Shown piece by piece: positions 438-32,468 of a stretch of 47,795 nucleotides of DNA (the first letter of the stretch is position 1; each line of letters begins with the position of its first letter). Made by a program: the position numbers and the translations under genes. Below the pieces are notes generated by a model. The model was not told the origin of the DNA and did no database searches. It saw only the letters and a program-made list of their open reading frames with translations. The DNA lies in the NCBI GenBank assembly GCA_011039385.1, contig DRBO01000022.1, positions 1 to 47,795 on the forward strand, in the 5' to 3' direction. The DNA comes from Chloroflexota bacterium. Lineage in GTDB: Bacteria > Chloroflexota > Anaerolineae > Anaerolineales > UBA11858.

Positions 438-1736
438 ATGCCGTCACCCAATCCGCCACTGCGGTCCCTGAGAGTCAATTCCTATCTGATTCCCGCTTTC
501 GGACTGATCATGGCTCTGGTGCAATTGTTCTTCCCCTTTAAAAGCTGGGCCATCCTGGCTTCCTCCTTTCTCGGATTGACTCTGTTCTCATACATCTGGG
601 CCTGGAGTTTAAAGGGAAACATTTCCCTGGAAAGAGAAATGCGCTTCGGCTGGATGCAGGTAGGCGATCGGGTTCAGGAGCGGATCGGGGTTGAGAACGA
701 CAGCAAGTTGCCCGCCCTCTGGGTCAGGATCATTGACCATTCCTATATGCCAGGATACACAGCCAGTGCGATCGTTAATGTCCGCAGCCAATGGTACACA
801 CATTGGCACACTTTTGGGATTTGCGACCAACGCGGTATTTACACCCTGGGCCCGACCAGTCTTGAGACGCATGATCCGCTGGGAATCTTCACGGTCAGGA
901 TCGATTACAGCGAGACAGTCAACATGATGGTTGTTCCCCGGGTTGTTCCCCTGCCCCAGATTGAAATTGCCCCGGGTGGAAGGACTGGTGAAGGAAAATC
1001 AACCAGCACTGGGCTGGAAAGGACCATAGTCGCCGGGGGTGTCAGGGAATATATACCCGGGGACAGCCTGCGGTGGCTGCACTGGCCAACAACCGCCCGC
1101 CTGAATAAACCCTATGTACGCGTATTTGATTTCTCCCCAGCCAGCAATTGGTGGGTGCTGCTGGATATGGATCCAGCAGTCCATACAGGGGAAGGCCAGA
1201 ATTCAACAGAAGAATACAGTGTTATCCTGGCAGCTTCCCTGGTCCATGAAGGGCTGCAGCAAGGCAAAATGGCGGGTTTGATCGCCATGGGTGACGAGTT
1301 GATCTGGCATGTGCCAGACAGGGGAGATGCCCATCTGTGGAGAGTCCTGCGATCCCTGGCCCTTATCCGACCCACCGGCCCCCCGCTTCCAGAGATGTTG
1401 AAACACCTCCGCCTGACACTGGAACAGCGTACCAGTCTGGTGGTGATCACGCCTAACATGGATACTGAATGGGCCAACGAATTAGGCTTACTGCTCAGGA
1501 AAGGTATCGTACCCACTGTATTGCTCCTCAATCCTTCTGCCTTTGGCGGAACACAGGACCCCAACGCCATCCAGAATCGCTTGTTGAACATGAATATCAA
1601 ACACTACAACTTCAGTGACTCGCTTCAGGACCTGGCTCAATTTGAACCGCTGGGACAGGAACACCAACCCGGTAATCAAATGAGAGAATACGTTAAAACC
1701 CTCCCCAGGCAATCCAGCGAATGGAGAGCACTGTGA
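438..1736 (+). CDS. DUF58 domain protein (MoxR-system partner, vWA-like fold)
   Basis: 432-aa ORF with two N-terminal TM helices and the DUF58 hallmark GVREYIPGDSLRWLHWPTTARLNKPYVRVFD. It sits next to transglutaminase and MoxR genes. Confidence 0.85.
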   Translation: MPSPNPPLRSLRVNSYLIPAFGLIMALVQLFFPFKSWAILASSFLGLTLFSYIWAWSLKGNISLEREMRFGWMQVGDRVQERIGVENDSKLPALWVRIIDHSYMPGYTASAIVNVRSQWYTHWHTFGICDQRGIYTLGPTSLETHDPLGIFTVRIDYSETVNMMVVPRVVPLPQIEIAPGGRTGEGKSTSTGLERTIVAGGVREYIPGDSLRWLHWPTTARLNKPYVRVFDFSPASNWWVLLDMDPAVHTGEGQNSTEEYSVILAASLVHEGLQQGKMAGLIAMGDELIWHVPDRGDAHLWRVLRSLALIRPTGPPLPEMLKHLRLTLEQRTSLVVITPNMDTEWANELGLLLRKGIVPTVLLLNPSAFGGTQDPNAIQNRLLNMNIKHYNFSDSLQDLAQFEPLGQEHQPGNQMREYVKTLPRQSSEWRAL

Positions 1737-4165
1737 TGTTGGCTTCCATCCGCAAGTTCGCTGAGAAGAACTTGTCCAGGCAGATACTCAGGAACATCGC
1801 CTTGATCTATCTGCTGTTCATCCTGCTGGTCAACGTTCTGCGAGATTCCATCCAGGGAGTAGAAACCAGCCTCTTGACCCTGATGATCACCATGGGGCTG
1901 GTACTGGCGTGGGCGCTGGCGGTCTCTGAAATTGAAGAATGGAAAACCGGTTTGATCGCCTTTCTGAGTGGAGGTACGATCCTGGTGATTCGGATTGGCA
2001 GATTAGGCGACCTGATCTTTTCCTTGTTCCGGGAAATGTGGGGGTTAGGATCCCAAACTCTCTCCTATCTATCCGGGCATGGTGAGATTACCAGGTCCGA
2101 TGCTATCCCGGCAGGGATTTCCGAGCTTGGGTCCCGAATCGCCACCCTGGGTTCACGCCTGGGAGTCTGGATCCTGAGCCTGTTCCGAGGAAAACCAATC
2201 TACGATCCAGTTGCCACGGCATTTATCTGGGGCATCTTTGTCTGGTTGATTGCGGTCTGGGCGATGTGGATCACCATCCGCCATAAGAAACCTCTGTGGG
2301 GGATCATCCCCACCCTGGTGCTGACCAGCTTGAGCCTGGTTTATACCGGCACATCGGTCTACAACCTGGTTCCCATGTTGGGGATCATGATCGGTCTGGT
2401 GATAATGGGCAGGTACGATGCCCATGAGAACCAATGGAAATCAGAGCAGATCAAATTTGCCGGAATCATCCGGGAACGAATGGTGTTCTTGGCTGTGATC
2501 ATGGCCGTGGCGTTGATGCTGTTCGCGGCCATCAGCCCCTCAATTACAATCCGGGGCATCGTGGATTTCATTGACAGGATCACTTCTGATCATGTCAACG
2601 AAGATGACCTTGTCCGCTCTTTAGGACTAGAACCTGTCGGAAAAGAAGGTGCTGTAAGTGTGCTTGACAACCGCCAGAGCGGCGGCCTTCCCAATCGCCA
2701 CCTGATCGGCTCGGGAGAAGAGCTTGGCACCCAGCTGGTGATGATTATCCAGGTGCAGGATCTTAGCGGTCCCAGCCTGGAGGAAATCGATCCTGCAGAA
2801 CAGGTCTATTACTGGCGCAGCCTGACCTATGACCAATATGTAAGCAGGGGCTGGGTATCGCGGGACAGCATAATCCGGGAATACGCACCTGGACAGAGAA
2901 CCCTCTCCAACTGGTCTGATACCTATCAGATCATCCGCCAGAAAGTTGATACTGTGGAAGATCTAGATGGATTGCTGTTCAGTGCTGGCATCCCACTTAG
3001 TGCGGATCAAGATTTTGAAATTGCCTGGAGAGTCCAGAACACCAATGAATGGACCTTCGATATCTTTGGAGCCTCATTGGAGGCCGAATCCTACATCGTG
3101 GATTCGCTTCAGCCCCGGGCAAGTATAGAGGAACTTCAGGAAGCCGGACAGGATTACCCCCAATGGATCCGGAACCGCTACCTGGGCTTGCCGCCTACCG
3201 TACCGGATCGGGTAATCGGTCTGGCAAGAGACATCACCGCTACCGAACCCAATCCCTATGATCGGGCGCTGGCAATTGAGGGGTTTTTGCGCCGATTCCC
3301 CTACACCCTGGACCTTCCCCAACCCCCCATGGAACGGGATATCACAGATTATTTCCTGTTCAGTGCCAAACGGGGCTACTGCGATTATTACGCCACCGCC
3401 ATGGTGGTTCTATCCCGGGCAGCTGGCCTGCCAGCCCGTCTGGTAACAGGCTATATTGGGGGTTATTATGATCCAAATCTTGATGCTTACCTGGTAACGG
3501 CAGATCTTGCTCACGCCTGGCCAGAGATCTACTTCCCGGAGTACGGCTGGATCATTTTCGAGCCAACCGGCGGCAGGTCCGAGATCGAAAGGCCAGAAGG
3601 TCCAATACCTAAATTCGCCCAGGACTATCCCACCGCATTCGATCCCCTGGTCCAAGAAAAAGAACCCCTACCGGTAAACTGGTGGTTAGTCGGGCTGGGC
3701 TTCCTGATTGGAATTCCCCTGATCGGGTTCCTGGTCTACCTGGCGGATGACCTCTACCTCAAGCGTATGGTCCCCGATAAACAGTTCCAACGAGTCTTCC
3801 GGCGGGTGTACCGTTATGCCCGCTGGTTGGGCCTTGACACCAAACCCGGTGATACGCCGCACGAATTCAGCACCAAGCTGATCCACCAATTAACTCAATT
3901 TGGAAGAGGCAGCAAACAAGCAGAATGGCTTCTGTATGGTTCTCATATCATCCGGGAAATCACCAGGCAATATTATCTGGTCCTGTATAGCCCGGATCAG
4001 GGCGCCGGGATAAACAGTCAGGAAACAGCGATCCTCTTCCGCGATCTGCGGAGTCGTTTATGGTACCTGTGGCTGTTGATCAAGGCTTACCCTTACAGAA
4101 TACCGCGCTTCTTCTTGTGGGATTCCGCTCCCATGTTAATCAGTTCAAAGCCTAATAAGTCATAA
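1721..4165 (+). CDS. transglutaminase-like domain membrane protein (TgpA-like)
   Basis: 814-aa ORF with a multi-TM N-terminal half. The transglutaminase core carries the catalytic Cys context (KRGYCDYYATAMVVLSRAAGLPARLVTGY), followed by AHAWPEIYF and a C-terminal TM. An alternative start ATG at 1736 overlaps the DUF58 stop (TGATG). Confidence 0.85.
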   Translation: MESTVMLASIRKFAEKNLSRQILRNIALIYLLFILLVNVLRDSIQGVETSLLTLMITMGLVLAWALAVSEIEEWKTGLIAFLSGGTILVIRIGRLGDLIFSLFREMWGLGSQTLSYLSGHGEITRSDAIPAGISELGSRIATLGSRLGVWILSLFRGKPIYDPVATAFIWGIFVWLIAVWAMWITIRHKKPLWGIIPTLVLTSLSLVYTGTSVYNLVPMLGIMIGLVIMGRYDAHENQWKSEQIKFAGIIRERMVFLAVIMAVALMLFAAISPSITIRGIVDFIDRITSDHVNEDDLVRSLGLEPVGKEGAVSVLDNRQSGGLPNRHLIGSGEELGTQLVMIIQVQDLSGPSLEEIDPAEQVYYWRSLTYDQYVSRGWVSRDSIIREYAPGQRTLSNWSDTYQIIRQKVDTVEDLDGLLFSAGIPLSADQDFEIAWRVQNTNEWTFDIFGASLEAESYIVDSLQPRASIEELQEAGQDYPQWIRNRYLGLPPTVPDRVIGLARDITATEPNPYDRALAIEGFLRRFPYTLDLPQPPMERDITDYFLFSAKRGYCDYYATAMVVLSRAAGLPARLVTGYIGGYYDPNLDAYLVTADLAHAWPEIYFPEYGWIIFEPTGGRSEIERPEGPIPKFAQDYPTAFDPLVQEKEPLPVNWWLVGLGFLIGIPLIGFLVYLADDLYLKRMVPDKQFQRVFRRVYRYARWLGLDTKPGDTPHEFSTKLIHQLTQFGRGSKQAEWLLYGSHIIREITRQYYLVLYSPDQGAGINSQETAILFRDLRSRLWYLWLLIKAYPYRIPRFFLWDSAPMLISSKPNKS

Positions 4166-4170
4166 GAAGG

Positions 4171-5130
4171 ATGACCATGAAAAATATCAAAGACGTCTCG
4201 GATAAGATCATAAATAACATAAACCAGGTAATTCTCGGGAAGAACGATACCGTAGAGCTGGCCGTTATCTGTTTGCTCAGCAAGGGGCATTTGCTGATCG
4301 AGGATATTCCTGGCGTTGGGAAAACCATGTTAGCCCGCAGTCTGGCCCGCTCTCTGGACGCCTCATTTGGTCGCATCCAATTTACTCCGGATATGCTCCC
4401 AAGTGATATCACCGGGGTGTCAATCTACAACCAGGCTAACCAGGATTTCGAATACCGACCCGGCCCGGTGACATCGGAAATCGTTCTGGCTGACGAGATC
4501 AATCGAGCAACACCAAAAACCCAGTCCGCCCTGTTGGAAGCCATGCAGGAGAGGACAGTGACGGTTGACGGTGTCACCCATCAACTGCCAGAATTGTTCA
4601 TGGTCATAGCTACCCAGAATCCCATTGAGCATGAAGGCACCTTCCGACTACCAGAAGCCCAGCTGGACAGGTTTCTCATGCGAATCCGGCTTGGGTATCC
4701 CCAGCTCAACGATGAATTGAATATTCTGGATGGACAGCAATATCAGCACCCTATCGATGAATTGAAAGCAGTGGTGTCGGTTGAAGAAGTGCAGCAAGCT
4801 CAGGAAGCTGTCAAGGAGATTCATATCGCACCCCCGGTTAAACGCTATATCGTGGAAATGGTCCAGTACACCCGGGAACACAATGACGTTTACCTGGGAT
4901 CCAGTCCCCGCGGCAGCTTGGGTATCTACCGGGCCAGCCAGGCCAGGGCAGCCATCCGGGGGCGTGATTACGTCACGCCAGATGATATCCAGGGGATTGC
5001 AGAGCCGATCCTGGGCCACCGCCTGATCCTGGCGCCGGGTGCTCGGCTGCAAAACAGAAATGAAGACAACATCCTCGAAGAATTACTGCAAAGAGTCCAG
5101 GTTCCTGGCGGGGATATCTATTCCAAGTGA
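4171..5130 (+). CDS. MoxR-family AAA+ ATPase
   Basis: 319 aa with Walker A (GVGKT), Walker B (LADEINR), and the typical MoxR motifs ATQNPIEHEGTFRLPEAQLDRF and SPRGS. Confidence 0.9.
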   Translation: MTMKNIKDVSDKIINNINQVILGKNDTVELAVICLLSKGHLLIEDIPGVGKTMLARSLARSLDASFGRIQFTPDMLPSDITGVSIYNQANQDFEYRPGPVTSEIVLADEINRATPKTQSALLEAMQERTVTVDGVTHQLPELFMVIATQNPIEHEGTFRLPEAQLDRFLMRIRLGYPQLNDELNILDGQQYQHPIDELKAVVSVEEVQQAQEAVKEIHIAPPVKRYIVEMVQYTREHNDVYLGSSPRGSLGIYRASQARAAIRGRDYVTPDDIQGIAEPILGHRLILAPGARLQNRNEDNILEELLQRVQVPGGDIYSK

Positions 5131-5271: not shown

Positions 5272-8200
5272 TTAATAATTCAATTCGTAACCCATCACCA
5301 TCACACCCAGGCTGAGAACTTCGCCAGCTTGCTGGAGTTTTTCCAGGTCAATAGTGTCCATGTTATCATCCATCGTGCCGCCAGTATCCCACCACTCTTC
5401 CCAGTGGACCCCAACAAAGGATGCCTCTGCAACCGGGACATTATTGCCTTCATTAAAGAGGATACTCAAATCTACCTGGCTGTCTGCTTTAGTGACCGGG
5501 ATTCCCAACTTCCTGGCAGAGGATTCAAACAGCTCAACCAGGCGCAGGCTGCCCTGGGTAGATAACATCACTTCCTCTCCCCCGCCCGCGCCTACACCCC
5601 GTATCCCGATTATGGCTTCAAGATCCAGGTACTTGGAGAACCCCCCTTTGGCCTGGAGGAACTTGGATATATCCGGGTATACCCATTCACCGCCTTCTTG
5701 CCCTTCCCCGGCATAAGCAATGAAGAGGAAGGTCCGGTTGGGCTGATAGCCTGATTCCTGCATAGTGCGGATCAGCTCCAGCATCAGGGCAACGCCAGAA
5801 GCATTATTGTTGGCTGCTTGAGGAGCGGATGCCCCCCTTATCAGAGGCGGGCTGTCATACTGGGCCATGACCACAACCAGCTTGTTATCCATCTGAGCTT
5901 TGGGATCTCCCTTGTTTCCAGGCAGGTGTCCGATCACGTTGCGGACTTCAAAGTCCTCCACAACACTTCCCTGGACAGTCATCGCAGCCTCAATTCCAGT
6001 AGGAATGATCAGGCATTCATCTTGTTTGAGGTCATCCACACGGATTTTCAGGGAGTTCACCTGGTAGCCCGTGCCTTCCAGCAAGTTATTAGCGACCTCA
6101 GTGCTGATCCGCAGGATGGGCGTATTCTGGCCGATGGTCTCAGTCGAACCAAAGGGGTTAAAGAAAGGAGATCGGGCAGACAGGGTGGTGCGCTGATTGA
6201 TGAGAGATTCATCTTCGGTGACAATCAACAAGCCATCTTTAGGGATATCATGGAGGATGCCTGCATCCCTTTCGTTCAGGACAACGACGATCTGCCCACT
6301 GAAATCCAACTCATCCAGGGCAGGGAAGTTCCGGAACCACTGTCCCGTCTGCATCAGGTCGCCCAATCCCAGAAAGACCATTTCTCCTTTTGCAGACCCC
6401 AAGTTCTGATAGTAACCGACAAATTCCACGAAATCCTCATGATAGACTAATTCAGGGCTGCCATCATAGAACTTCAAAGTTGGCTCCCGTGTCAGGTACT
6501 CGAATTCCCTGGTCCGGGTTTGAAAATAAGTAAATTCCTCTCCAGCCGGCTGCAGGCCCAGCGCCTCGAATTCCCCGGCGATATACGCTGCCGCTTGATC
6601 CATCCCCGCTGTACCCAGAGAGCGTCCTTCCCAGCGGGGATCAGATAGGATATCCAGGTAAGCGTACGCCCGCTCACCCTGGAAGCTTTCTGCCTGTTGG
6701 ATGAAAATTGCCGTCGATCCAGTGGTTCCCCTGAACCAGAAGAACACACCTGCCAGCAGGCCAAATACTGCCAGCGTATATTTGTTGATGATCAACCGGG
6801 TAGCTGCAATACCCACAGTTTCAATGAATCTGCGAATCCCTTCACCCAGGAAATTGAATCCAGTGATCGCTACAAAGAAAGCCCCGGCAGGATACAACGC
6901 AGTCCAGGGGTAGGAGCGAGCATACAGGCGGATATTGCTCAATAAGGCGCCCCATTCTGGAACATCAGAATAATGATAGGGCGGACCCCAGATCTCAATT
7001 TCCGCAAAAGCTCCCCCTCCGATGAAAATGCCGATAAAACCCAGCTCACCCAGCAGCATCAGCACGGCCCCCATTTCCAAAGAAAGGATCGAAACCAACC
7101 CCGGAATGATGTTGGGAAAAACGTGTTTGCCAAGGATCCTGCCTGAATGAGCGCCTGCTGCTTCAGCGCTTTCAATGAACAGCTGGGGCTTGATTTCCAG
7201 CACCTTGCTGCGCACATACTGCATGATCTCACTCCAACCTATAAAGCTCATGGCGATGATAAATGGTTGCATACCCTGGCGGATGCCAATCCCCAGGATC
7301 AGCACCATCACCAGCAGCAAAGCCGGGAAAGCCGCAATGGTTTCTGACGCCCCTAACACAAATCGGTCCAACCAGCTCCCTGAAAACCAGCCAGCCAGAG
7401 CACCCAGGAGGAAGCCAACCACCAGGCGAACAACTACAACAAAGATAGCCAGTGTGAATGTCTGCTGCGCGCCGGAAAGGATCAAGCTCATGATATCCCG
7501 ACCCAAGGGATCTGTTCCCCAAGGATAGACTTTGTCGGGCTTAAAAGGCGGCACAAGCAGCTCCCCGTCCTCAATAGTTAAGCCCTGGGTTTGGTAAGGA
7601 CTATGAGGGGACAGCTGGGGACTGAAAAACATGACCAGTGCTAAACTCGTTACGATAACCACGCCAATCAGCAGGGCGGGGTTTCCTAATGTGCCCTTAA
7701 GCCAGACCCGGAGCCGAGCCTTGCCCATTGCCAGCGTATCGTAGTAGGTAAACCCATCCTCTCTTTGATCAATAATTTCTCTAAAAGGGCTCTGACTGGC
7801 TTCTTTTTTCCCGGGCAGCCAGCGCAGCCAGGGTTTATCAGCCAAGAAAGTTCGAACATTCTTTATAAGGTTTTTCCAGAATCCCCAAAATCCTTTCTTC
7901 CCTCCCCGAACATTCGCCCCCTGATCCCGCAAGCGGGGGTCAATTAGTATATAAGACCAATCGAGGAATAAATTGACCAGGATGAACAGGATTCCCAGGC
8001 ACAGCGCCAGCCCGATAGTCAGGTCATCATCGCGATTGGAGATGGATTGCAGCAAGGTATAACCGAGTCCCTGCCAGCCAAAGAAATACTCCACTATCGG
8101 CAAACTGCTTAGGGCAAACCGCAAAGAAAGGCCGATTGTGGTCAGGACAGGAACAGCGGCATTCCGGGTGATATGAACTGCCATGACATAAATGGACCGC

Positions 8201-9681
8201 AAGCCCTTGCTGTAGGCAGTCCTGACATAATCCTGTTTGAGAATATCCTCAACCGTGATATAGGTGACCCGGGTAATTTGTGCCAGTGGTCTGGCTGCCA
8301 ACACCAAAACGGGAAGGATGAGATGATCATCCCAGCCAAATCCCCCTACCGGCAGCAAGGATTTACCATAGAACTGAGTCAGTTTGATCGTACCCATTTG
8401 CAGCAGCAGTGCCGCAAAGAAGCTGGGCACGGACACACCAACAATGGACACCATCAGGGCTGCCAGCGTGATCCCGGAGCGTCTTCCAGCGATTAATACA
8501 GCCAGAATCACGCCTACCACAGCTGAGACCAGCAGCGATACGCCCAGCAAACCCAGGCTGCGGATCAGGACGTCAGGGATGACTTCCACAACTGGTTTGG
8601 ACAGCAGAGAGACGCTCCCTGAACTGGTTTCCCCTAAATCCCCCCGCAAGGCATCAGAGGCATAATCCATGGTTTTAACAACGCTGTCCCCAGCCGCCTG
8701 TTTAAAAGGCACTCCCCTGGCCATATCCAAACCCAGGAAGCTGGCGTAGGTGATAAAAGCCAGGACTAAAAGCCCAAAGACCAGCCGGGGAAATAGGAAA
8801 GAAACCGACTGATTCAGACGGCGCAGGAAAGGAATATCATGTTCTGTTTTATCAGCGCTGTGATGAAAGCTCAACTTCCATCCTCCTTCCCCAATAACCC
8901 TGTTGTCCCGTATCAAGAAAAGATACCAGCCCAGCAGCAGGAACAGTACCACCAGCTCGGCCAGAATGATTAACCAATCTGTGTTAAGACCGGAGATAGC
9001 CTTCCCTCCTTGATAGATATGGATGGGGGTGATTCGAGAGATCTTCTCCAGGTCAGGATAGATATTGGCCAGGCCTACCAGCAAATAATTTCCAACCAGG
9101 GCTGCCCCGGTGAACATACTGGCCATGCGCGAGGATGGCAATACCTGGCTGAGCAGGATAGCCAGAAAGCCAAATAGAGCCAGCTGGGCTAGCAACGGCA
9201 GAAACGGTCGAGCTAATTCCAGGGCTGTGAGGTCCAACCCTGAAGCCCCCGCAGGAATGGCCCAGCTCAACCAGGCAATCGTCAGGAGTATGACCAGGGT
9301 TGCCAGGAAGCCCAGGACCCTGCCCCAGAATATCCCTGACCTGCCAGCCGGATAGGACAGGATCGGATCCGGGACGCCATCTCCCTCACCCTGGCTCAAC
9401 AGCTTGGCTCCCGCGCCAACAGCCAGGATGCCCATGATCACCATCATGATATTAAAGAAACAGACATCCAGGTAACCTTCCGGAGCAGAAAGAGAGGTAA
9501 AACTGCTCCCGAGGAAGGCCATCAGCTCCTCCGGGAAGGAAGCCAGATAACCAGAAAAATCTATCAGGGCAATGTCACTGTAAATGCCAACCATCAGCAG
9601 ACTGTAGACAGCCAGCCCAATGCCCCAACCAATGATAATTCCTCGAAATTTTCTTATAGTACGTGTGAACTCTACAAACAC
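5272..9681 (-). CDS. four-module fusion protein: ABC-2-type permease-like domain + OppB/DppB-like permease + OppC/DppC-like permease + extra TM + PA/M28 peptidase-like domain
   Basis: Uninterrupted 1469-aa ORF with a GTG start after GGGAGGG.
- aa 1-260: 6-TM ABC-2-like domain (degenerate E-x-E-x-GT...LLS-P-x-R region as QGEGDGVPDPILSYPAGRSG, ending FLIRD).
- aa ~285-586: BPD_transp_1 type with the EAA loop (DYVRTAYSKGL), ending LIDPRLR.
- aa ~660-955: OppC-like (YPWGTDPLGRDI, ESAEAAGA).
- aa 967-983: extra TM helix.
- aa ~990-1469: PA + M28-like region (NNNASGVALMLELIR, TFLFIAY). Confidence 0.8.
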   Translation of the reverse strand: MFVEFTRTIRKFRGIIIGWGIGLAVYSLLMVGIYSDIALIDFSGYLASFPEELMAFLGSSFTSLSAPEGYLDVCFFNIMMVIMGILAVGAGAKLLSQGEGDGVPDPILSYPAGRSGIFWGRVLGFLATLVILLTIAWLSWAIPAGASGLDLTALELARPFLPLLAQLALFGFLAILLSQVLPSSRMASMFTGAALVGNYLLVGLANIYPDLEKISRITPIHIYQGGKAISGLNTDWLIILAELVVLFLLLGWYLFLIRDNRVIGEGGWKLSFHHSADKTEHDIPFLRRLNQSVSFLFPRLVFGLLVLAFITYASFLGLDMARGVPFKQAAGDSVVKTMDYASDALRGDLGETSSGSVSLLSKPVVEVIPDVLIRSLGLLGVSLLVSAVVGVILAVLIAGRRSGITLAALMVSIVGVSVPSFFAALLLQMGTIKLTQFYGKSLLPVGGFGWDDHLILPVLVLAARPLAQITRVTYITVEDILKQDYVRTAYSKGLRSIYVMAVHITRNAAVPVLTTIGLSLRFALSSLPIVEYFFGWQGLGYTLLQSISNRDDDLTIGLALCLGILFILVNLFLDWSYILIDPRLRDQGANVRGGKKGFWGFWKNLIKNVRTFLADKPWLRWLPGKKEASQSPFREIIDQREDGFTYYDTLAMGKARLRVWLKGTLGNPALLIGVVIVTSLALVMFFSPQLSPHSPYQTQGLTIEDGELLVPPFKPDKVYPWGTDPLGRDIMSLILSGAQQTFTLAIFVVVVRLVVGFLLGALAGWFSGSWLDRFVLGASETIAAFPALLLVMVLILGIGIRQGMQPFIIAMSFIGWSEIMQYVRSKVLEIKPQLFIESAEAAGAHSGRILGKHVFPNIIPGLVSILSLEMGAVLMLLGELGFIGIFIGGGAFAEIEIWGPPYHYSDVPEWGALLSNIRLYARSYPWTALYPAGAFFVAITGFNFLGEGIRRFIETVGIAATRLIINKYTLAVFGLLAGVFFWFRGTTGSTAIFIQQAESFQGERAYAYLDILSDPRWEGRSLGTAGMDQAAAYIAGEFEALGLQPAGEEFTYFQTRTREFEYLTREPTLKFYDGSPELVYHEDFVEFVGYYQNLGSAKGEMVFLGLGDLMQTGQWFRNFPALDELDFSGQIVVVLNERDAGILHDIPKDGLLIVTEDESLINQRTTLSARSPFFNPFGSTETIGQNTPILRISTEVANNLLEGTGYQVNSLKIRVDDLKQDECLIIPTGIEAAMTVQGSVVEDFEVRNVIGHLPGNKGDPKAQMDNKLVVVMAQYDSPPLIRGASAPQAANNNASGVALMLELIRTMQESGYQPNRTFLFIAYAGEGQEGGEWVYPDISKFLQAKGGFSKYLDLEAIIGIRGVGAGGGEEVMLSTQGSLRLVELFESSARKLGIPVTKADSQVDLSILFNEGNNVPVAEASFVGVHWEEWWDTGGTMDDNMDTIDLEKLQQAGEVLSLGVMVMGYELNY

Positions 9682-9817: not shown

Positions 9818-11590
9818 TTAATATTCACCCAGGAAGATCACGCCATAAATGGACAACGTCAACACCGTATCCACAATCACTGCAGTCATGTAGTACCCCA
9901 GTGAAGAGGTCACAGAATTGCGGTGGCGCCGGCGCCATTCTGCTGTAGCGATACCTAGGCCGATAATGATGATCGGCACTCCAACCCGTAAAACTGATCC
10001 CAATCCTTGTGGGACATCCAGCCAGGCAGAAAAAGGCACATAGATCAATATGTCAGGCAGGAACAGCAGCTTGGAAACCTGGTAAGAGAGCAGCGCAAGC
10101 ACCACCAAGGCTATAGACAGGGGCTGAGTGACATCTTCATCGTTGCGGGCTAATCGCAAGGCAATCGTTATCACCAGCCCTATGGCCATCCAGGGGAAGG
10201 CAAAAGGGAAGAGCAGGATGCCAGTGATCGCTTCCAGTCCCCCTGAAAAGATCAGCGTAGAGAAATCACCCAGTGCAACCCGGTCTAATCTCTCCCTGGC
10301 GATAGGAGCAGTGGTGGCATAAAAGACCCGATTCCCAGCAAAGCCTTCCTGCCAGATCAAATGCAGATTTCCTCCAGCATCAAGGGAGATGCTCGGGTTC
10401 TGAGAGATCTCAGTTGTGCGCGTTCCCACAACGTAGCTATCATAGACCCCTTCCTCAAAGATCCCTACCATGATCTGCATATGGAAGTCGAGTCGATTGA
10501 CCTGGCGGGCAGAAACAGCGACGAGCATTACGTCTTGGGCCGGGGTTGCCAACGTCTGGGGATTAAGGATATGATCGGTGCTCAGGTAATCCTCAGGAGG
10601 TGCAGGGACAGCCTGGGAGAGAGACAAGGACCCTTGATAGGGCTGAAGGAAATCCTCGCTTACCGGGAAAATCGTTACCAGTCCTCGGCGGGCTTGGCCC
10701 ATTTCACTCTTTGGAAATACCAGGTATTCCGTGATCGCAGTCCCGGCTTCCAGACCAGTCTGCCGCAAAATGGACCAGAACAAGTATACCTGGCTGTCAG
10801 TGATACTTATCACAGGGCCATCCAATCTATTTCCCAGGGCAACCTTGATGGTGGCCATTGCTTCTCCTTCTAACGGGAAAGAAGTATCTTCATAAATTGA
10901 AGCATAGAACAGCTGATCTCCCTGCATCCAGGCGACATGAGTCCCTTCCTGATCTGCTATCAGCGCAGGTAATTCCCCCTCTGCTACCATTAACTTCGGA
11001 GGTGAAATGAGATTTCCTTGTTTTGATATTCTAGTGAAATAGAGGGAATTGGCATTACCATCCTCCCAGACGATGGTCAAATTTCCTTGATCATCCTCAG
11101 TTCCTTCAAATTGGCTGACCCTTTCCGTCCCCATGGAAACCAGTTTGGGAGTTGATGTGACCTCAGCATCCGCGTTGATAATGGCATGCCACAGCTCCCA
11201 GTTTTCCTGGGTTGATTCCCGGGCAGCCCACACCAGGTGCAGTTCTTCTCCAATCGCAATCACTTGGGGGGAGCGCACATAAGGAGCCAACTCAAGATCC
11301 AGCTCCTGGTCCATGACAATCCCGGCCTCCTGGTCGAGGCGAATATACTGGAAGGAATTCCCGGTTTCTCCATTCTGCCCGGGAATGACTACCTGGATCA
11401 GGTCTCCCTCGGGGTTTACAGCCGCAGAAGGAGAGCCAATGGCCTCGGCGGAGAGGAGCATCCCCCGGCTGAAGTCACCAGCTGGTTTGCGGGTTTTCTG
11501 CCCCTCGCTCCCACAGCCAGTCAGCAGAATGACTGCCAGCAGGATAAAAGGGATAATTGGTGTTTTGTGTATTATTCTGGTCTTAATCAT
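9818..11590 (-). CDS. hypothetical lipoprotein with a beta-propeller-like repeat ectodomain and a C-terminal multi-TM domain
   Basis: Start re-called to ATG 11590 (MIKTRIIHK...), preceded by AAGGA, because the upstream 21 codons of the track ORF cover a terminator hairpin. Lipobox LLTGC. Repeated strand motifs LHLVW, LTIVW, THVAW, VYLFW and LHLIW resemble sialidase/BNR-like propellers. The last ~150 aa contain 4-5 TM helices. Confidence 0.6.
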   Translation of the reverse strand: MIKTRIIHKTPIIPFILLAVILLTGCGSEGQKTRKPAGDFSRGMLLSAEAIGSPSAAVNPEGDLIQVVIPGQNGETGNSFQYIRLDQEAGIVMDQELDLELAPYVRSPQVIAIGEELHLVWAARESTQENWELWHAIINADAEVTSTPKLVSMGTERVSQFEGTEDDQGNLTIVWEDGNANSLYFTRISKQGNLISPPKLMVAEGELPALIADQEGTHVAWMQGDQLFYASIYEDTSFPLEGEAMATIKVALGNRLDGPVISITDSQVYLFWSILRQTGLEAGTAITEYLVFPKSEMGQARRGLVTIFPVSEDFLQPYQGSLSLSQAVPAPPEDYLSTDHILNPQTLATPAQDVMLVAVSARQVNRLDFHMQIMVGIFEEGVYDSYVVGTRTTEISQNPSISLDAGGNLHLIWQEGFAGNRVFYATTAPIARERLDRVALGDFSTLIFSGGLEAITGILLFPFAFPWMAIGLVITIALRLARNDEDVTQPLSIALVVLALLSYQVSKLLFLPDILIYVPFSAWLDVPQGLGSVLRVGVPIIIIGLGIATAEWRRRHRNSVTSSLGYYMTAVIVDTVLTLSIYGVIFLGEY

Positions 11591-11606
11591 CAACCTGTTC
11601 CTTAGA

Positions 11607-11641
11607 TAATAAAAATACTGCGGATGCCCTGGCATCCGCAG
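11607..11641 (-). terminator. rho-independent terminator/attenuator after oppC-like gene
   Basis: On the minus strand, CTGCGGATGCC-AG-GGCATCCGCAG (11-bp perfect inverted repeat) is followed by TATTTTTATTAT. It lies 42 nt after the oppC-like stop and 17 nt before the next start codon. Confidence 0.7.
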
Positions 11642-11682
11642 CGAGTTTTTCACACTCAGGACGAACTTGGTTTCTGTGATCC

Positions 11683-12693
11683 TTATTTGTCTATCTGTCG
11701 AGGATCGAACGCGTCCCGGAGGCCATCGCCCAGGAAGTTAAAAGCGAGGGTAGTCAAGGAGAGCGCAATGGCAGGTAACAACACCTGGTTGGGATAAGAG
11801 CGCAGTGCCTGAACACCCTCCTGGATCATAATGCCCCAACTGGGAGTGGGCGCGTTGACGCCCAGGCCAATGAAACTCAAGAATGCCTCCGTGAAGATAT
11901 AACCGGGAATAGCCATTGTTTCCGCCACGATCAGCGGTCCTAAAATATTAGGCAGCAGGTGCTTGAACATGATCCGGGTATCATTAGCGCCCAGGGCATG
12001 CGCTGCTTCCACAAATTCCATCTGTTTGTAGGACAGCACCTGCCCCCGGGCAATGCGGGCCATTCCCAGCCAGTTGATCAGCCCGATGGCAATGAACAGG
12101 AACAGCAAACCTCCCATCTGGTTATTCAAGTTGATAAAAGCCCCCCCCATACCTTCTCCCCCACTGCGGCTGGCGATGGCTTTGAAGTAGGTTTGCAAAA
12201 GAATAACTACGATTAGAAACGGGAAGGCCCACAGGAAATCCACCACCCGCATCATGAGGTTGTCCACCCTGCCGCCAGCATAACCCGAGATCATCCCATA
12301 GACAATCCCGATCAATAAACTAACCAAGGATCCTGCAAATGCGATCGTCAGCGAAACACGGGCGCCGAATATTGTCCTGGTTAAGAGATCCCGGCCCAGA
12401 TGATCTGCCGCGAGAGGAAATTTATCACTGAAATTGGCGTAATTCTCCGCTCCTTCCGGCATTATGAACAGCATCCATTTCGGAATAGCGTTATTGGCTA
12501 TTAAATCCTGTTCGGCATAGGTATAGGGTGTGAGCTGTTTCGCAAATACTGCCACCAGGACCATGAGGATAATGAAGATCCCGCTGATAACTGCCAATTT
12601 GTTCCTCAGCAGCCTATCCATGGATTTCTGCCACAAACTGCGTTCTTTTTGTTGGGTTATCGATGAGTTCAATTCTAAATCTGCAACTGCCAT
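11683..12693 (-). CDS. peptide/nickel ABC transporter permease (OppC/DppC type)
   Basis: 336 aa with the N-terminal OppC_N-type segment, LGRDLLTR, EAA loop (EFVEAAHALGA), and the C-terminal NFLGDGLRDAFDPR. Confidence 0.9.
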   Translation of the reverse strand: MAVADLELNSSITQQKERSLWQKSMDRLLRNKLAVISGIFIILMVLVAVFAKQLTPYTYAEQDLIANNAIPKWMLFIMPEGAENYANFSDKFPLAADHLGRDLLTRTIFGARVSLTIAFAGSLVSLLIGIVYGMISGYAGGRVDNLMMRVVDFLWAFPFLIVVILLQTYFKAIASRSGGEGMGGAFINLNNQMGGLLFLFIAIGLINWLGMARIARGQVLSYKQMEFVEAAHALGANDTRIMFKHLLPNILGPLIVAETMAIPGYIFTEAFLSFIGLGVNAPTPSWGIMIQEGVQALRSYPNQVLLPAIALSLTTLAFNFLGDGLRDAFDPRQIDK

Positions 12694-12726
12694 ACAATCC
12701 TCCCAGCCACCTTGGAGTAGTTTTGA

Positions 12727-13737
12727 TTAATCATAACGAATGCGTGGATCCAGCCAGGCATAGGTGATATCCACCACTAAATTGGCGATCACCAGGACCA
12801 CGGCGTAGAGCAGGGTCACGCTGGTGATCACTTGATAATCGCGGTTCCCCACGCTGGTCACGAAATGCTTGCCCATGCCATTAATGCCGAAGATCTGCTC
12901 CACGATGAACGTCCCTGTCAGCAAAGCTGCAAAAGCCGGTCCCAGAATGGTCACTACCGGGATCAGGCTGTTCTTGAGAGCGTGGATAACGATCACTGCC
13001 CGCTCCCTGAGGCCTTTGGCCCGGGCGGTGCGGATGTAATCCTCACCAATCACCTGCAGCAGGCTGGCCCGTGTCAACCGGGCGATGCCTGCCGCCGAGC
13101 CGGTGCCCAGGGCAAAGACAGGCATGATTGCGTGGCTGAAGAATTCCTTATTTAATGCAGTGGGCAGGAAACCCAATAAATAGGGTGGTTTGGCACCCCA
13201 ACCTGCCACCGGGAACCAGCCCAGTATCAAGGCAAAGATCCAGATCAGGATTGGTGCCAGGACCATGTTGGGGATGGACACGAACATCACTGCCCCGAAG
13301 GTGGTGGTGTAATCGATCCAACTGTTTTGATTGAGGGCAGCAATGATCCCGGCCGGGATGCCGATGATGATCGCCAGCAGGAGTGACATAAATCCCAATT
13401 GGGCTGAGACTGGCAGGGTGATCTTGATGATATCCGCCACAGTTTGTCCCCGGAAATGATAGGATGGACCGAAGTCACCCCGAATCACCCCCCGGGATCC
13501 GCCTTCCTCGCCCAAAATATCGTCTCCTATCATATAAGATAGATACTGTTTCCACATCGGCCAATCCAGGTGGTATTTGGCTTCCAGGTTGGCGACAATG
13601 GTGGGCGGCAGGCTGCGGTCGCCCGCAAAATCAAACGGGCCGCCCGGGATAGCCTGCATGAGCACAAAAGTGAACAGGCTGATCGCGATTAATACCGGGA
13701 TAAATTGCAGAATTCTGCGAAATATGTAGCGGGCCAT
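12727..13737 (-). CDS. peptide/nickel ABC transporter permease (OppB/DppB type)
   Basis: Start re-called to ATG 13737 (MARYIFRRILQFIP...), which is the canonical OppB N-terminus. EAA loop DYIRTARAKGL; C-terminal LDPRIRY. The 18 upstream codons of the track ORF are the translated hairpin at 13761-13789. Confidence 0.9.
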   Translation of the reverse strand: MARYIFRRILQFIPVLIAISLFTFVLMQAIPGGPFDFAGDRSLPPTIVANLEAKYHLDWPMWKQYLSYMIGDDILGEEGGSRGVIRGDFGPSYHFRGQTVADIIKITLPVSAQLGFMSLLLAIIIGIPAGIIAALNQNSWIDYTTTFGAVMFVSIPNMVLAPILIWIFALILGWFPVAGWGAKPPYLLGFLPTALNKEFFSHAIMPVFALGTGSAAGIARLTRASLLQVIGEDYIRTARAKGLRERAVIVIHALKNSLIPVVTILGPAFAALLTGTFIVEQIFGINGMGKHFVTSVGNRDYQVITSVTLLYAVVLVIANLVVDITYAWLDPRIRYD

Positions 13738-13751
13738 AAAATAATTCCTTT

Positions 13752-13789
13752 GTGAAAATTGGAGACTGGAGGAGGAACCTCCAGTCTCC
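13752..13789 (-). terminator. intra-operon hairpin plus U-tract between the SBP gene and oppB (partial terminator / mRNA stabiliser)
   Basis: GGAGACTGGAGG-ttcct-CCTCCAGTCTCC forms a perfect 12-bp GC-rich stem, followed by AATTTTCAC on the minus strand. Confidence 0.6.
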
Positions 13790-13813
13790 AAGAGTTGCTA
13801 CAACTAGTCTGGA

Positions 13814-15604
13814 TTATTGAGCTGCCAGTTTGGCATCCATGTCAACTGTCCAGTTGTAGATGTCAATGCCGCCGATGGCCGGGAAGTTCCGGGTCAGCCA
13901 AGGCTTGCTGACGTTTACGCTGGTGTAGTGATAGATCGGGGCGTAAGCGGTTTCAACTTCAGTCAGCAGTCTCTCAGCTTCAGCGTACATCTCAGCTCGC
14001 TTTGCTGGATCAGGTTCGATACCAGCCGCTGCGGTCAGCGCATCAAATTCACCAGCTTCACGGCGAAGGCGATTGGCGCCTGCATCAGCGTTGAAGACTT
14101 CGTGGACCCAGTTGTTCTCATCCGGGTAGTCCGCGCACCAGCCGAGGCGCCAAATATGAGGCATATCCTCGAGCGGGGTGGTGTTCTTGAGGGTGTCCAG
14201 ATAGACAGCCCATTCCTGGTTCTCAACACGCACTGTGACACCGAGCACGTCAGCCCACATCTGCTGGATGGCAGCGGCGATCCGGGCGTGGCCCTCACTG
14301 GTGTTGTGCATCAACACCACATCCAGGGCGTTGAACTCATCGATGGTCATGCCCTTTTCATCCAGGTACTCCTGGAGGGAAGCTTTAGCAGCTGCGGCAT
14401 CGTAGCCCAAGCCAACTGTTCCTGGTTCGGGAGCGCCGAAGATTCCGGGAGGCGCAAAGGAGGTGGCAGGAATCTGCCCGCCCTTCAACACGTTGTCGGC
14501 CAAGCTCTGGCGGTCGATCGCCTGGGAGAATGCCCGGCGGACGCGCACGTCATCCAGGGGCGGTTTGCTGTTGGTGAAGCCGTAGTAGTAGGTGCAGGGC
14601 ACTGGAGCGATGCGGAGTTCTTCGCTGAGGACCGGATCAGCCTTGACGCGGTCCATCTCGGGGAGAGGAACGCCAGTGCTGTCCAGCTCATTGTTCTCGT
14701 AGAGAGCGAATGAGGTGGAGGCTTCCGTGATCATCACGAAGTCTACGCGCTCGATCTGAACACTGTCAGCGGCGATCCACAGGGGGTTCTTGACCAGGCT
14801 CAGCTCACCACCGTGAATCCAGCTTTCTAGGACGTAAGGACCGCTGGTAACGATCAGGCCAGCCTCAGTCCACTTGTCGCCCCACTCATCAATGGCCCAG
14901 GCCGGCATCGGTTTCACGATCCACATAGTGCTGATGCCATCGAAGTAGCCAGCAGGATATTCAAGGGTGAATTCAACCGTGGTTTCATCAAGAGCTTTCA
15001 CGCCCAGGTCATCAATGGTCAGCTCTTCATCGCCGCCGTTGATGGCTGCAGCATTCTTGATCACGTAGGTAACATAGGCATAGTCAGAGCCTGTGGCGGG
15101 GTCAACGGTTCTCTTCACACCATATTCCACATCGTAGGCATTGACAAAGCGGGGGTTACCGTCTGCGTCAACTTCCTGCGTGGTTTCGCCAGAAATTGGA
15201 TCATATTTCACCCAGGGAACGTCGTCCCGCAGGTGGAAGGTCCAGGTCTGCTCGCCGTCAGCGTTCTCGGCGATGTCCCAGGAGGTTGCCAGGTAAGGCT
15301 CAACTTCGTTGGTGACCGGGTTGAAATTGGTCAGACCAATGAAGAGGTTCTCCTGAATATCCACGGAGGTGGTGTCTGTGGCCAGGGAAGGATCCAGGGT
15401 TGGGGGTTCAGTGCCCAGGTTCAGATTCAGAGTAACGGGGATCTCTCCCGCTTCCGCTTCTTTCTCGACGACAACGGTCTCAATAATTGTCTCGCCCTCT
15501 TTCTCGACGATGACGGTCTCGACCACTGTCTCTCCGCCGCAGGCGGAAAGCACAAGCGCGCCGACGATCAGAACGGAAAATAGTGCTAATAATCTTTTCC
15601 TCAT
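13814..15604 (-). CDS. ABC transporter substrate-binding lipoprotein, family 5 (OppA/DppA type)
   Basis: 596 aa. Signal peptide plus lipobox (LVLSAC), a repetitive E/T/V-rich tether, then a typical SBP_bac_5 core (GPYVLESW..GGELSLVKNPLW). Confidence 0.9.
   Translation of the reverse strand: MRKRLLALFSVLIVGALVLSACGGETVVETVIVEKEGETIIETVVVEKEAEAGEIPVTLNLNLGTEPPTLDPSLATDTTSVDIQENLFIGLTNFNPVTNEVEPYLATSWDIAENADGEQTWTFHLRDDVPWVKYDPISGETTQEVDADGNPRFVNAYDVEYGVKRTVDPATGSDYAYVTYVIKNAAAINGGDEELTIDDLGVKALDETTVEFTLEYPAGYFDGISTMWIVKPMPAWAIDEWGDKWTEAGLIVTSGPYVLESWIHGGELSLVKNPLWIAADSVQIERVDFVMITEASTSFALYENNELDSTGVPLPEMDRVKADPVLSEELRIAPVPCTYYYGFTNSKPPLDDVRVRRAFSQAIDRQSLADNVLKGGQIPATSFAPPGIFGAPEPGTVGLGYDAAAAKASLQEYLDEKGMTIDEFNALDVVLMHNTSEGHARIAAAIQQMWADVLGVTVRVENQEWAVYLDTLKNTTPLEDMPHIWRLGWCADYPDENNWVHEVFNADAGANRLRREAGEFDALTAAAGIEPDPAKRAEMYAEAERLLTEVETAYAPIYHYTSVNVSKPWLTRNFPAIGGIDIYNWTVDMDAKLAAQ
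15461..15538 (-). repeat. imperfect tandem duplication of 39 bp inside the SBP gene (linker repeat)
   Basis: 15461-15499 (tttctcgacgacaacggtctcaataattgtctcgccctc) versus 15500-15538 (tttctcgacgatgacggtctcgaccactgtctctccgcc). These encode ETVVETVIVEKEG / ETIIETVVVEKEA directly after the lipobox Cys. Confidence 0.8.
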
Positions 15605-15729
15605 GGTTGTTCTTCTCCTTCTAAATGTGTCTGCAATTACTTGCTAACAAAAGTAAGTCTGAGCGGCATCACCTCCTTACCAGTAGATTCCCTCGCCTTA
15701 AGGATACGAGTGAATTGCGAGGGGATATA

Positions 15730-16734
15730 TCAGAGCATTTCTTCCTGGGCCTTTTTTGTGAAATGACAGGCAACCCAGTGTCCTGGTGTCTTTTCTTCAA
15801 AGGGTGGATCCTCAACCTTGCAGATATCTTGCGCTATTGGACAGCGGGTGTGGAAGCGGCAGCCAGAAGGCGGTTTCGCGGGGCTTGGCACATCACCTTC
15901 CAGGATGATCCGCTTGCGCTGGCGCTCTTTGACTGGATCCGGGATCGGTACAGCCGACAGCAGTGCGATGGCATAGGGGTGCATTTTATTATAAAAGAGT
16001 TCATCCTTATCGGCAAGTTCAACCAACTTGCCCAGATACATGACTGCAATCCTGTCAGAGATATGCCTCACCATGGACAGATCGTGAGCGATAAACAGGT
16101 AAGTCAAATCGAATTTTTCCTGCAGTTCTTCCAGCAGGTTGACCACCTGGGCCTGAACAGAGACATCCAGGGCAGAAATGGGTTCATCGCAGACAATGAA
16201 ATTCGGATTCAATGCCAAAGCCCGGGCAACGCCAATCCTCTGTCGCTGTCCGCCGGAAAATTCGTGGGGGTAGCGTTTGATGAAAAACGGATTCAAGCGC
16301 ACCAGGTTGAGCAGCTCCTGCACTCGTTCTAAACGTTCCTTGGCCGTACCGATCTTATGGATATCCAGTGGTTCGCCGATGATATCTCCAATCGTCATCC
16401 GGGGATTGAGCGAAGCGTAAGGATCCTGGAAGATGATCTGCATTTCACGGCGCAGTCTGCGCAGATCGCTTTCTCCCATGGTGGTGAGGTCTTCGCCGTC
16501 ATAATAAACCTTCCCGGCCGTGGGTTCGTGGAGCTGCAGGATGGTTCTGCCCGTGGTGGATTTACCGCAGCCGCTTTCCCCTACCAGACCCAAGGTCTCA
16601 CCGTGTTTAATGTCAAAGCTGATACCATCAACAGCCTTGACCGCGCCAACTTGGCGCTGGATAATAACGCCCTGGGTGATGGGAAAATGTTTAACCAGTT
16701 TTTCTACGCGTACCAATGAGTTGTTTTCAGCCAT
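15730..16734 (-). CDS. peptide ABC transporter ATP-binding protein (OppF/DppF type)
   Basis: 334 aa with Walker A (GESGCGKST), signature (FSGGQRQR), Walker B ([12 protein letters not shown]), and the C-terminal oligopeptide-type Cys-containing tail. Its ATG overlaps the oppD stop (TAATG). Confidence 0.9.
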
Positions 16735-17729: not shown

Positions 17730-17904
17730 TTCTCTCCTCCAGTCACAAAAATGGCGCTTTGTACTAAATTGAGTTACAAAGTTTGCTGAATTATTCTTTA
17801 AATATACAACCTATATTATCGAAATTCAATCTTTTGATCAAGAACATAATAACAATCGAATCCTGAACAAGAATTCTACCATAAAGACTACCCTTTTCCG
17901 ACCA

Positions 17905-17918
17905 ATTATCTAGATAAT
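17905..17918. promoter_or_regulatory. perfect 14-bp palindrome in the AT-rich region upstream of oppD; candidate operator
   Basis: ATTATCTAGATAAT is self-complementary and lies in the 240-bp AT-rich gap 17730-17969. A candidate minus-strand promoter, TTGATC(17841-17836)-17 nt-TAATAT(17818-17813), lies downstream of it. Confidence 0.3.
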
Positions 17919-17969
17919 ATAGATGCTTCCCGGTTTGGTAATATTATCATATCTGGGAGCAGTCTACAA

Positions 17970-32243: not shown

Positions 32244-32305
32244 CTCCTAGTGAGAAGATCTAGGAGTCATCAGCAGAATGGCGGTTTTCGGTGGACTCCA
32301 GCACC
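32244..32305 (-). promoter_or_regulatory. fluoride riboswitch (crcB RNA motif) with an SD-sequestering expression platform
   Basis: Minus strand: GGUGCUGGAGUCCACCGAAAACCGCCAUUCUGCUGAUGACUCCUAG. It matches the class by P1 (GGUG/CACC), pseudoknot (GGAGUC/GACUCC), AAAC and GAUGACUCCUA. It lies directly 5' of crcB. P3 looks short. Confidence 0.75.
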
Positions 32306-32468
32306 ATTAAACAGGGGATATTCTATCACAATTACTGGGGAGTGAATCAATCCAGAAGTCAACAATTGGGGGGAGAAAATCCACAGAACTCTTGCTATTT
32401 TCCTTCACCTGTTGTAGATTATACGGAATATGCAATCAGGTCTAATTTCTTGTTTGTAGAAGAGAAAG

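Follow-up and report, generated by a model that had tools for sequence, protein, structure and literature searches.

The window, that is, the whole stretch of 47,795 nucleotides analyzed here (Chloroflexota bacterium, GenBank assembly GCA_011039385.1, contig DRBO01000022.1), carries on its minus strand a single open reading frame (ORF) of 1469 amino acids (aa) which joins the two permease halves of an ATP-binding cassette (ABC) importer to a C-terminal ectodomain with the fold of M28 aminopeptidases. A previous reading made from the nucleotide letters alone (the sequence-only reading) had proposed that this ectodomain may be a pseudo-peptidase. The proposal is borne out by profile alignments, structure prediction and substitution rates: the zinc site, as mapped, cannot form, the fold is kept, and the domain is under purifying selection.

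The Fusion Gene and Its Domains

The following parts can be differentiated in the fusion gene:

5272-9681, minus strand: whole ORF (1469 aa and stop codon), encoding an ABC-importer membrane protein as one chain, the ectodomain at its C-terminus
8857-9681, minus strand: N-terminal ABC-2-like domain of six transmembrane (TM) helices, aa 1-275 (PF12679 and hydropathy)
7882-8814, minus strand: OppB-like permease domain, aa ~290-600 (BPD_transp_1 and NCBIfam Opp2B-like)
8143-8232, minus strand: EAA/ATPase-coupling loop of the OppB-like half, aa 484-513
7717-7881, minus strand: Lys/Arg-rich cytoplasmic linker between the permease halves, aa 601-655
6802-7716, minus strand: OppC-like permease domain, aa ~656-960 (Pfam, NCBIfam and structure matches)
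7093-7179, minus strand: EAA loop of the OppC-like half, aa 835-863
6727-6795, minus strand: extra TM helix, aa 963-985 (hydropathy peak at aa 963-981)
5275-6714, minus strand: extracytoplasmic PA+M28-fold domain, aa 990-1469, the last 480 aa (Pfam, AlphaFold2 [AF2] and Foldseek)

The order of domains is thus ABC-2-like, OppB-like, OppC-like, extra TM helix, and PA+M28 ectodomain. The N-terminal domain matches PF12679 at aa 24-222, above the Pfam gathering score (30.2 bits against a cut-off of 27.2). Two stretches match the permease family BPD_transp_1 (PF00528; E 1.9e-42), and the match to OppC_N is weak. In NCBIfam, the two halves are OppB/NikB-like (aa ~335-589) and OppC/NikC-like (aa ~667-953), all with scores far below the equivalog cut-offs; the OppC-like half also matches the structures of DppC and OppC. 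Type I ABC importers are recognized by two permease domains, each with a conserved EAA loop, and both are found in this ORF. In the OppB-like half, the loop residues R487, A489, K492, G493 and H503 are 100% conserved (n = 80), as are A839, H853 and P856 in the OppC-like half (n = 86), with 92-100% conservation for the EAA-loop residues overall. Since the loops are near-invariant in both halves, the membrane part looks like a working ATPase-coupled importer.

Hydropathy analysis gives about 6 + 6 + 6 TM helices, plus one more after the OppC-like domain; due to this extra helix, the 480 residues that follow are placed outside the cell. The loop that precedes the first OppC-like TM helix and includes the linker (aa 573-658, 86 residues) contains 17 Lys and Arg residues. 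At the junction between the OppC-like domain and the ectodomain, an 'NRYT' motif followed by a hydrophobic stretch is seen in the 18 family members inspected; all 80 members scanned have the junction segment, and its best 19-residue hydropathy window exceeds 1.5 in 54 of them.

Since the nearest protein in the databases had been called with just 695 aa, the possibility that the 1469-aa ORF is an artefact was considered. It was rejected, as the intact single-ORF architecture recurs in independent assemblies (L005, L007, L008 and L010), and the short call is explained by the frameshifts that riddle the contig of that homologue. Such frameshifts abound in L001/L004 and L019, syntenic contigs of MFD metagenome-assembled genomes (MAGs) in which most genes lie in 2-4 pieces. 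In almost all loci, OppB', OppC', the TM helix and the PA/M28 domain form a single ORF of ~1200 aa. The ABC-2-like N-terminus is limited to the subclade of the window (L005, L007, L008, L010, and the frameshifted L001/L004, L009 and L019), and other clades bear at that end a fused N-terminal ABC ATPase (P0125, P0133 and P0190). Representatives of 1440-1460 aa were taken as candidate carriers of the ABC-2-like domain and rejected, as they have the N-terminal ABC ATPase instead.

Peptidase Fold and Metal-Ligand Positions

Both a profile match and an alpha/beta fold place the ectodomain in the M28 family. Peptidase_M28 (PF04389) matches at aa 1248-1456 with E 5e-11 (43.1 bits against a cut-off of 21.3), and hhalign against a canonical M28 profile gives a probability of 99.6%. 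The AF2 model, built from a 50-sequence alignment, has a predicted local distance difference test score (pLDDT) of 89.5 and a predicted template modeling score (pTM) of 0.88. Its best Foldseek matches in the PDB are PaAP (E 1.7e-23), 2EK8 and BSAP, and then TfR1 and GCPII, with E values for the PA-domain M28 aminopeptidases ranging from 1e-23 to 1e-21. All the best fold matches contain a PA domain and align over ~500-530 columns, and AF2 models a beta-rich insert with high confidence. The 'PA + M28' description given by the sequence-only reading is thus probably right, though Pfam does not call a PA domain (no match at E<=0.01). The domain has the scaffold motifs xYDS, NASG-helix, FxAYxxE and DTxxxI in common with M28 aminopeptidases. 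In contrast, neither Pfam nor Foldseek returned any match to a substrate-binding protein (SBP) fold or family, the domain matching M28 only. A C-terminal helical dimerization domain of the TfR type is absent: in the global profile alignment, the C-terminus of AAP is reached at residue 479 of 480.

Metal ligands are numbered here after Vibrio AAP (1AMP), in which zinc is bound by His97, Asp117, Glu152, Asp179 and His256, with Glu151 as general base. The AAP and SGAP reference sequences were accepted only since the published ligand numbers fell on H/D/E/E/D/H and the PDB alignments agreed. The corresponding positions in the window are:

5860-5862, minus strand: codon CAG, Q1274 at the position of ligand His97 (hhalign and hmmsearch alignments)
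5806-5808, minus strand: codon AAT, N1292 at the position of the bridging ligand Asp117 (PDB-search and profile alignments)
5701-5706, minus strand: codons GAA and GGG, E1326-G1327 at the positions of Glu151-Glu152 (PDB and profile alignments, hhalign)
5599-5601, minus strand: R1361 at the position of ligand Asp179 (four-sequence canonical profile with hhalign; hmmalign of P0080)
5377-5379, minus strand: G1435 at the position of ligand His256 (6HC6 alignment and hhalign)

Each of these assignments depends on the register of a motif. In the translated minus-strand ORF, the motifs are AQYDS (aa 1273-1277), AANNNASG (1289-1296), RTFLFIAY (1316-1323), AGEGQEGGE (1324-1332), IGIRGVG (1358-1364) and GGTMDDNMDTID (1434-1445), and those strings of the sequence-only reading that were checked all lie where it had placed them. 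PDB searches, both with the single sequence and with family profiles, aligned AANNNASG...FIAYAGE with GADDDASG...FMAYAAE, which equates Asp117 with N1292 and Glu151 with E1326. A longer profile match and hhalign set AQYDS against GHLDS, so that His97 becomes Q1274 while the structural Asp99 is kept; the same alignments equate Glu152 with G1327. In BSAP (6HC6), 'WYHTPEDS' stands opposite 'TSRxxxDT' of the family, and hence the counterpart of His256 is Arg in the family consensus and G1435 in the window. For Asp179, both hhalign against a four-sequence canonical profile (probability 99.6%) and hmmalign of the canonical PA-M28 protein P0080 give R1361, a placement in keeping with both the register of the motif (AMINLDMIG against AIIGIRGVG) and the location of the residue at a strand end in the AF2 model. 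A different candidate, E1355, was found opposite Asp179 by MAFFT with AAP alone and by hhalign with a two-sequence profile of AAP and SGAP; it was rejected in view of the four-sequence profile and P0080.

As a positive control, 150 distant representatives were projected onto the family hidden Markov model (HMM). In 21 domains of giant multi-domain relatives, HDEEDH stands at the same six HMM columns, which settles the ligand mapping; at these columns, the permease-fused domains read Q-D-E-G-R-R and variants.

The protein of the window has therefore lost 5/5 zinc ligands and retained the general-base Glu (E1326). The profile-based alignment puts non-ligand residues, instead of His, Asp or Glu, at all five metal positions, from which it follows that the domain is a non-peptidase homologue of M28. 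On this mapping, the canonical co-catalytic zinc site cannot form in the ectodomain. The sequence-only reading had counted four of five ligands as lost: the loss holds, but the count falls one short. It had also left the Glu-Glu pair as ambiguous, which now resolves to Glu-Gly, the general base being kept and the ligand Glu lost. Its replacement of Asp by Arg at the Asp179 position was right, and its Gln codon (5860-5862) exact; the Asn codons, given as 5804-5812, were off by one, since the three of them lie at 5803-5811.

Distribution, Conservation and Selection

A genome scan, with one genome per species, found a full-length relative of the ectodomain in 124 species-level genomes, nearly all of them MAGs of Anaerolineae or other Chloroflexota. 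Furthermore, an exhaustive profile search of 1.84 billion representatives returned 159 clusters (50% identity) at E<=1e-30, with many members of 1160-1330 aa.

The ligand positions were counted in 82 species-level sequences. The canonical ligand is found in 0/82 at the positions of His97 (Q 72, K 4, P 4, His 0), Glu152 (Gly in 81, canonical Glu in none) and Asp179 (Arg 74, Asp 0). Of the other two ligand positions, Asp117 is D in 68 and N in 10, and His256 is R in 38, G in 20 and H in 8. Regarding the remaining acidic residues, Glu is present at the Glu151 position in 80/82, and D287 is kept in 82/82. The commonest pattern over the six columns is QDEGRR (32/82), and the QNEGRG of the window is a minority form. 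In this census, covariation between D/N at 1292 and R/non-R at 1435 was not convincing (~7/10 against ~33/68). The full-length permease fusions among the 50%-identity representatives are all degenerate at the site, with differences among clades (YDGESH, HDGESH and others).

The related giants of 1400-2180 aa (L002 12594-18770 and P0158-P0221) have between two and four M28-like stretches. As a rule, the first domain is canonical (HDEEDH) and the second degenerate (HDQEDN), an arrangement with the look of an enzyme-pseudoenzyme pair within one chain; the giant in L002 also has a DUF418.

The ratio of nonsynonymous to synonymous substitution rates (dN/dS) was estimated against the closest homologue, L009 (~81% identity), and the values are rough, since dS is ~1.2 and near saturation. 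They amount to 0.078 in the M28 core and 0.105 in the N-terminal/PA part, as compared with 0.12 and 0.043 in the two halves of the permease. Residues of the former active site (Q, Y-D, N-x-N-A-S-G, G-E-G and R-G-x-G) are among the invariant or near-invariant columns. These substitution patterns indicate that the ectodomain is maintained by purifying selection, and the low dN/dS thus points to a functional non-peptidase homologue, not to a relic.

Multiple copies are common. The fusion is tandemly duplicated in four loci (L029, L031, L034 and L043), and two separate fusion loci occur in one MAG in the pairs L016/L039, L025/L063, L028/L066 and L044/L065. Identity between tandem paralogues is 43-50% in the PA part, 51-60% in the M28 core and 58-78% in the permease, i.e., the ectodomain diverges faster.

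Gene Neighborhood

A tight same-strand cluster ends with the fusion, in the order SBP1, OppD, OppF, SBP2, OppB, OppC, a 611-aa protein and the fusion, with intergenic gaps of -1 to 240 bp. Three convergent genes lie on the other side of the fusion. The neighbors are:

11683-19868, minus strand: upstream canonical Opp cluster (Pfam)
17970-19868, minus strand: SBP1, family-5 SBP with lipobox
16734-17729, minus strand: OppD (Pfam)
15730-16734, minus strand: OppF (Pfam)
13814-15604, minus strand: SBP2, family-5 SBP with lipobox
12727-13791, minus strand: OppB (Pfam)
11683-12693, minus strand: OppC (Pfam)
9818-11653, minus strand: conserved neighbor with lipoprotein signal, beta-propeller and C-terminal TM bundle (AF2)
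438-1736, plus strand: convergent DUF58 (Pfam)
1721-4165, plus strand: convergent TgpA-like transglutaminase (Pfam)
4171-5130, plus strand: convergent MoxR AAA+ (Pfam)

In the window, OppD and OppF adjoin a canonical OppBC pair within the same cluster. Among the loci analyzed, a canonical SBP-OppB-OppC set is found near the fusion in 23, and OppD/F in 20; an SBP1-type gene recurs downstream of the fusion in ~8. The well-flanked loci, with at least 5 kb on both sides of the fusion (n = 28), comprise 10 with SBP and ATPase genes, 5 with SBP only, 3 with ATPase only and 10 with neither, so that an SBP gene is present at 15/28 and an ATPase gene at 13/28, and no family-5 SBP gene is found in the flanks of 13/28.

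The commonest neighbor, in 25 loci, is the propeller-TM gene. In the window it encodes 611 aa, probably 590 from an internal Met, with a lipobox, a propeller at aa ~40-426 and ~4-5 C-terminal TM helices. It has neither a Pfam nor a PDB sequence match, and its AF2 model (pLDDT 86.8) matches generic propeller folds only. DUF58 and TgpA adjoin the fusion in 13 loci and MoxR in 6; the DUF58-TgpA(-MoxR) set occurs in two orientations (loci L003, L015, L020, L021, L024, L029, L033, L048 and L052), often with an SBP1-type gene just beyond the DUF58/TgpA pair.

Elsewhere in the window, a fluoride riboswitch (RF01734) lies at 32254-32314 on the minus strand (37.9 bits against an Rfam gathering score of 34), and directly downstream of it, in the ordinary arrangement, a 119-aa CrcB/FluC-like ORF (31851-32210, minus strand). 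The region 23887-26606 (plus strand) encodes a 627-aa protein with a C-terminal FHA domain and then an overlapping PP2C phosphatase, a typical Ser/Thr signaling pair. Long ORFs with no Pfam match are found at 26645-28966 (minus strand, 773 aa), 38195-39565 (minus strand, 456 aa) and 35335-35961 (plus strand, 208 aa).

Functional Interpretation

The reading favored here, with some reserve, is that the ectodomain most likely serves a working peptide importer as a module for binding or docking, with no catalytic role. The fusion would be an importer driven by OppDF and probably still served by the lipoprotein SBPs, and the dead peptidase domain would act at the outer face of the transporter. As for the site itself, Gln, Asp/Asn, the retained general-base Glu, Gly and one or two Arg stand where the metal ligands and the base were. 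The Arg at the R1361 position (74/82) and at the His256 position (38/82), together with the retained bridging Asp and Glu, suggests that guanidinium groups fill the metal sites. In such a case, Arg side chains may replace the zinc ions by pairing with the retained acidic residues, and the resulting pocket may be able to hold a peptide terminus, some other anionic or zwitterionic ligand, or a partner protein without hydrolysis. An Arg-filled site of this kind could be open to a peptide terminus or an anion, or its role could simply be to stabilize the fold.

Four points weigh against this interpretation: (i) the conserved Arg-Asp/Glu residues could do no more than occupy the former metal site as structural salt bridges; (ii) the protein of the window is itself altered at two conserved site residues (D to N1292 and R to G1435); (iii) the faster divergence of the ectodomain is expected for any soluble domain relative to a membrane domain; and (iv) with 10/28 well-flanked loci lacking a nearby SBP or ATPase gene, the link to Opp is one of homology, and not always of context.

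In an unlikely alternative, though by a small margin the likeliest of those considered, an active PA-M28 aminopeptidase with its gene elsewhere would be docked onto the transporter by the dead M28 domain, thereby coupling extracellular trimming to uptake. The related giants combine canonical (HDEEDH) and degenerate (HDQEDN) domains within one chain; P0114 has OppB'-OppC' in one chain with a degenerate M28 domain and another domain that reads HDEED-; and in L002 the OppC-pseudoM28 gene is directly followed by that of a 2058-aa protein with a canonical M28 domain. Nevertheless, these cases all come from other clades, and no active M28 gene is present in the window, nor within 10 kb of the fusion in 79 main-clade genome loci.

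In the current view, substrate capture by type I ABC importers relies on Venus-flytrap binding proteins. The sequence-only reading proposed that the tethered domain may replace a soluble SBP; on this model, the dead M28 domain would itself take over the task of the soluble or lipoprotein SBP and feed peptides directly to the fused OppBC. The layout of permease, extra TM helix and ~50-kDa ectodomain is that of OpuA and GlnPQ, the paralogues are most divergent in the ectodomain, and 13/28 well-flanked loci have no family-5 SBP gene in their flanks. The claim does not find support in the window: its own cluster has two SBP lipoprotein genes, along with OppD and OppF, and the fold is M28 and not a Venus-flytrap SBP. 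Nor is it favored in about half of the family, with an SBP gene at 15/28 and an SBP1-type gene downstream of the fusion in ~8; in the orphan loci it may still apply. A non-SBP fold is not known to gate any type I importer. Overall, that the domain replaces the SBP is unlikely. The same low credence attaches to its fullest form, in which the remodeled, zinc-free domain is the tethered primary substrate receptor of a new class of ABC importer, with Arg in place of metals; peptide termini would be held uncut and handed to the single-chain OppBC permease, and orphan loci would do so with no SBP. Such a receptor, if real, would be the first without an SBP fold in a type I ABC importer.

It is improbable that the domain is a non-canonical enzyme, either metal-independent or with another metal site, that uses the general-base Glu, Asp/Asn and the conserved Arg. 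E1326 (80/82) and D287 (82/82) are retained, R1361 and Q1274 are strongly conserved, and dN/dS is low. Nevertheless, two cationic Arg in the site argue against metal binding, and other fused clades also lose the general base (YDGESH, PGGGDG and others), so there is no catalytic residue set common to the fused proteins.

More improbable still is mechanotransmission of the FtsEX-EnvC kind, in which ATP-driven motion would be relayed to the dead domain and thereby control an extracytoplasmic partner such as the propeller-membrane protein or TgpA. Both recur as neighbors (25 loci for propeller-TM and 13 for DUF58/TgpA), and EnvC is a precedent for a degenerate peptidase as ABC-coupled regulator. 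Against it, the membrane domains have type I importer (BPD_transp_1) folds, not those of the MacB/FtsX type, and most loci lack those neighbors.

Finally, a decaying relic or an assembly/frameshift artefact with no function, to which the lost ligands and the frameshift-broken assemblies (L001, L004 and L019) might point, is refuted by the conservation data, i.e., dN/dS of ~0.08-0.1, a full-length domain in 124 species-level genomes, intact single ORFs in many independent assemblies, and 159 clusters at E<=1e-30.

In >100 Anaerolineae species, with several paralogues per genome, single-chain OppBC bears a dead aminopeptidase domain of ~50 kDa on its outer face. Such conservation under purifying selection implies a previously undescribed accessory function where substrates enter the transporter. 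The site is also a clean natural case of metal-site remodeling, with Gln, Gly and Arg for three ligands and, in about half of the sequences, a second Arg for a fourth. The pairing of active and dead M28 domains in one chain among related proteins offers a testable route to function. In practical terms, the names given to these genes by automatic annotation and databases are generic ('M28 family peptidase' or 'permease'), and the former label is misleading for the metabolic reconstruction of peptide-degrading Chloroflexota.

Relation to Known Systems

Literature searches for a permease-pseudoM28 fusion returned no relevant paper; several known systems have one or other of its features. The PA-domain M28 aminopeptidases (PaAP 8ACK, Aneurinibacillus 2EK8 and BSAP/YwaD 6HC6) have the same fold and the same order of domains, the PA insert lying inside the M28 core. 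They are secreted, whereas here the five zinc ligands are replaced and the domain is fused to an ABC permease via a TM helix.

TfR1 and the other M28B non-peptidase homologues are likewise membrane-anchored, and their PA+M28-like ectodomain, which has lost the metal site, is used for binding. The likeness to TfR1 noted by the sequence-only reading is that of a genuine structural analogue (Foldseek rank 10, E 1.8e-22). But here the domain is bacterial, its sequence is nearer to bacterial aminopeptidases and nicalin than to TfR1, and the anchor is a 19-TM transporter instead of the single-pass type II anchor of TfR. Since the TfR-type C-terminal helical dimerization domain is absent, the domain falls outside the TfR subfamily and is to be seen as an analogue.

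In nicalin and nicastrin, a dead M28-like ectodomain is likewise attached to a multi-pass membrane machine. Among solved structures, nicalin, an M28 homologue without the ligands, gives the best sequence match outside the enzymes (E 3.8e-10, spanning the whole core). Nicastrin is a substrate gatekeeper for gamma-secretase, which provides a functional analogy. Both differ in being eukaryotic, non-covalent subunits of a translocon or protease complex, with no fusion to an ABC transporter.

Importers of the OpuA/GlnPQ type also tether an SBP-sized ectodomain to the permease, and have an extra TM helix that corrects the topology. Their tethered domain is a Venus-flytrap SBP, whereas here it has the M28 fold and the SBP genes are separate.

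The closest precedent in concept is the C39-like domain of HlyB, likewise a degenerate peptidase domain fused to an ABC transporter. Domains of this type have lost their catalytic residues and serve substrate recognition. The differences are clear: the HlyB domain is cytoplasmic and N-terminal, derives from a C39 cysteine peptidase and belongs to an exporter, whereas the domain described here is extracytoplasmic and C-terminal, has the M28 fold and is borne by an importer-type permease. The topic of the HlyB-type degenerate peptidase domain on an ABC transporter has been reviewed (PMC8277102). In general terms, the fusion is a new architectural variant built from known kinds.

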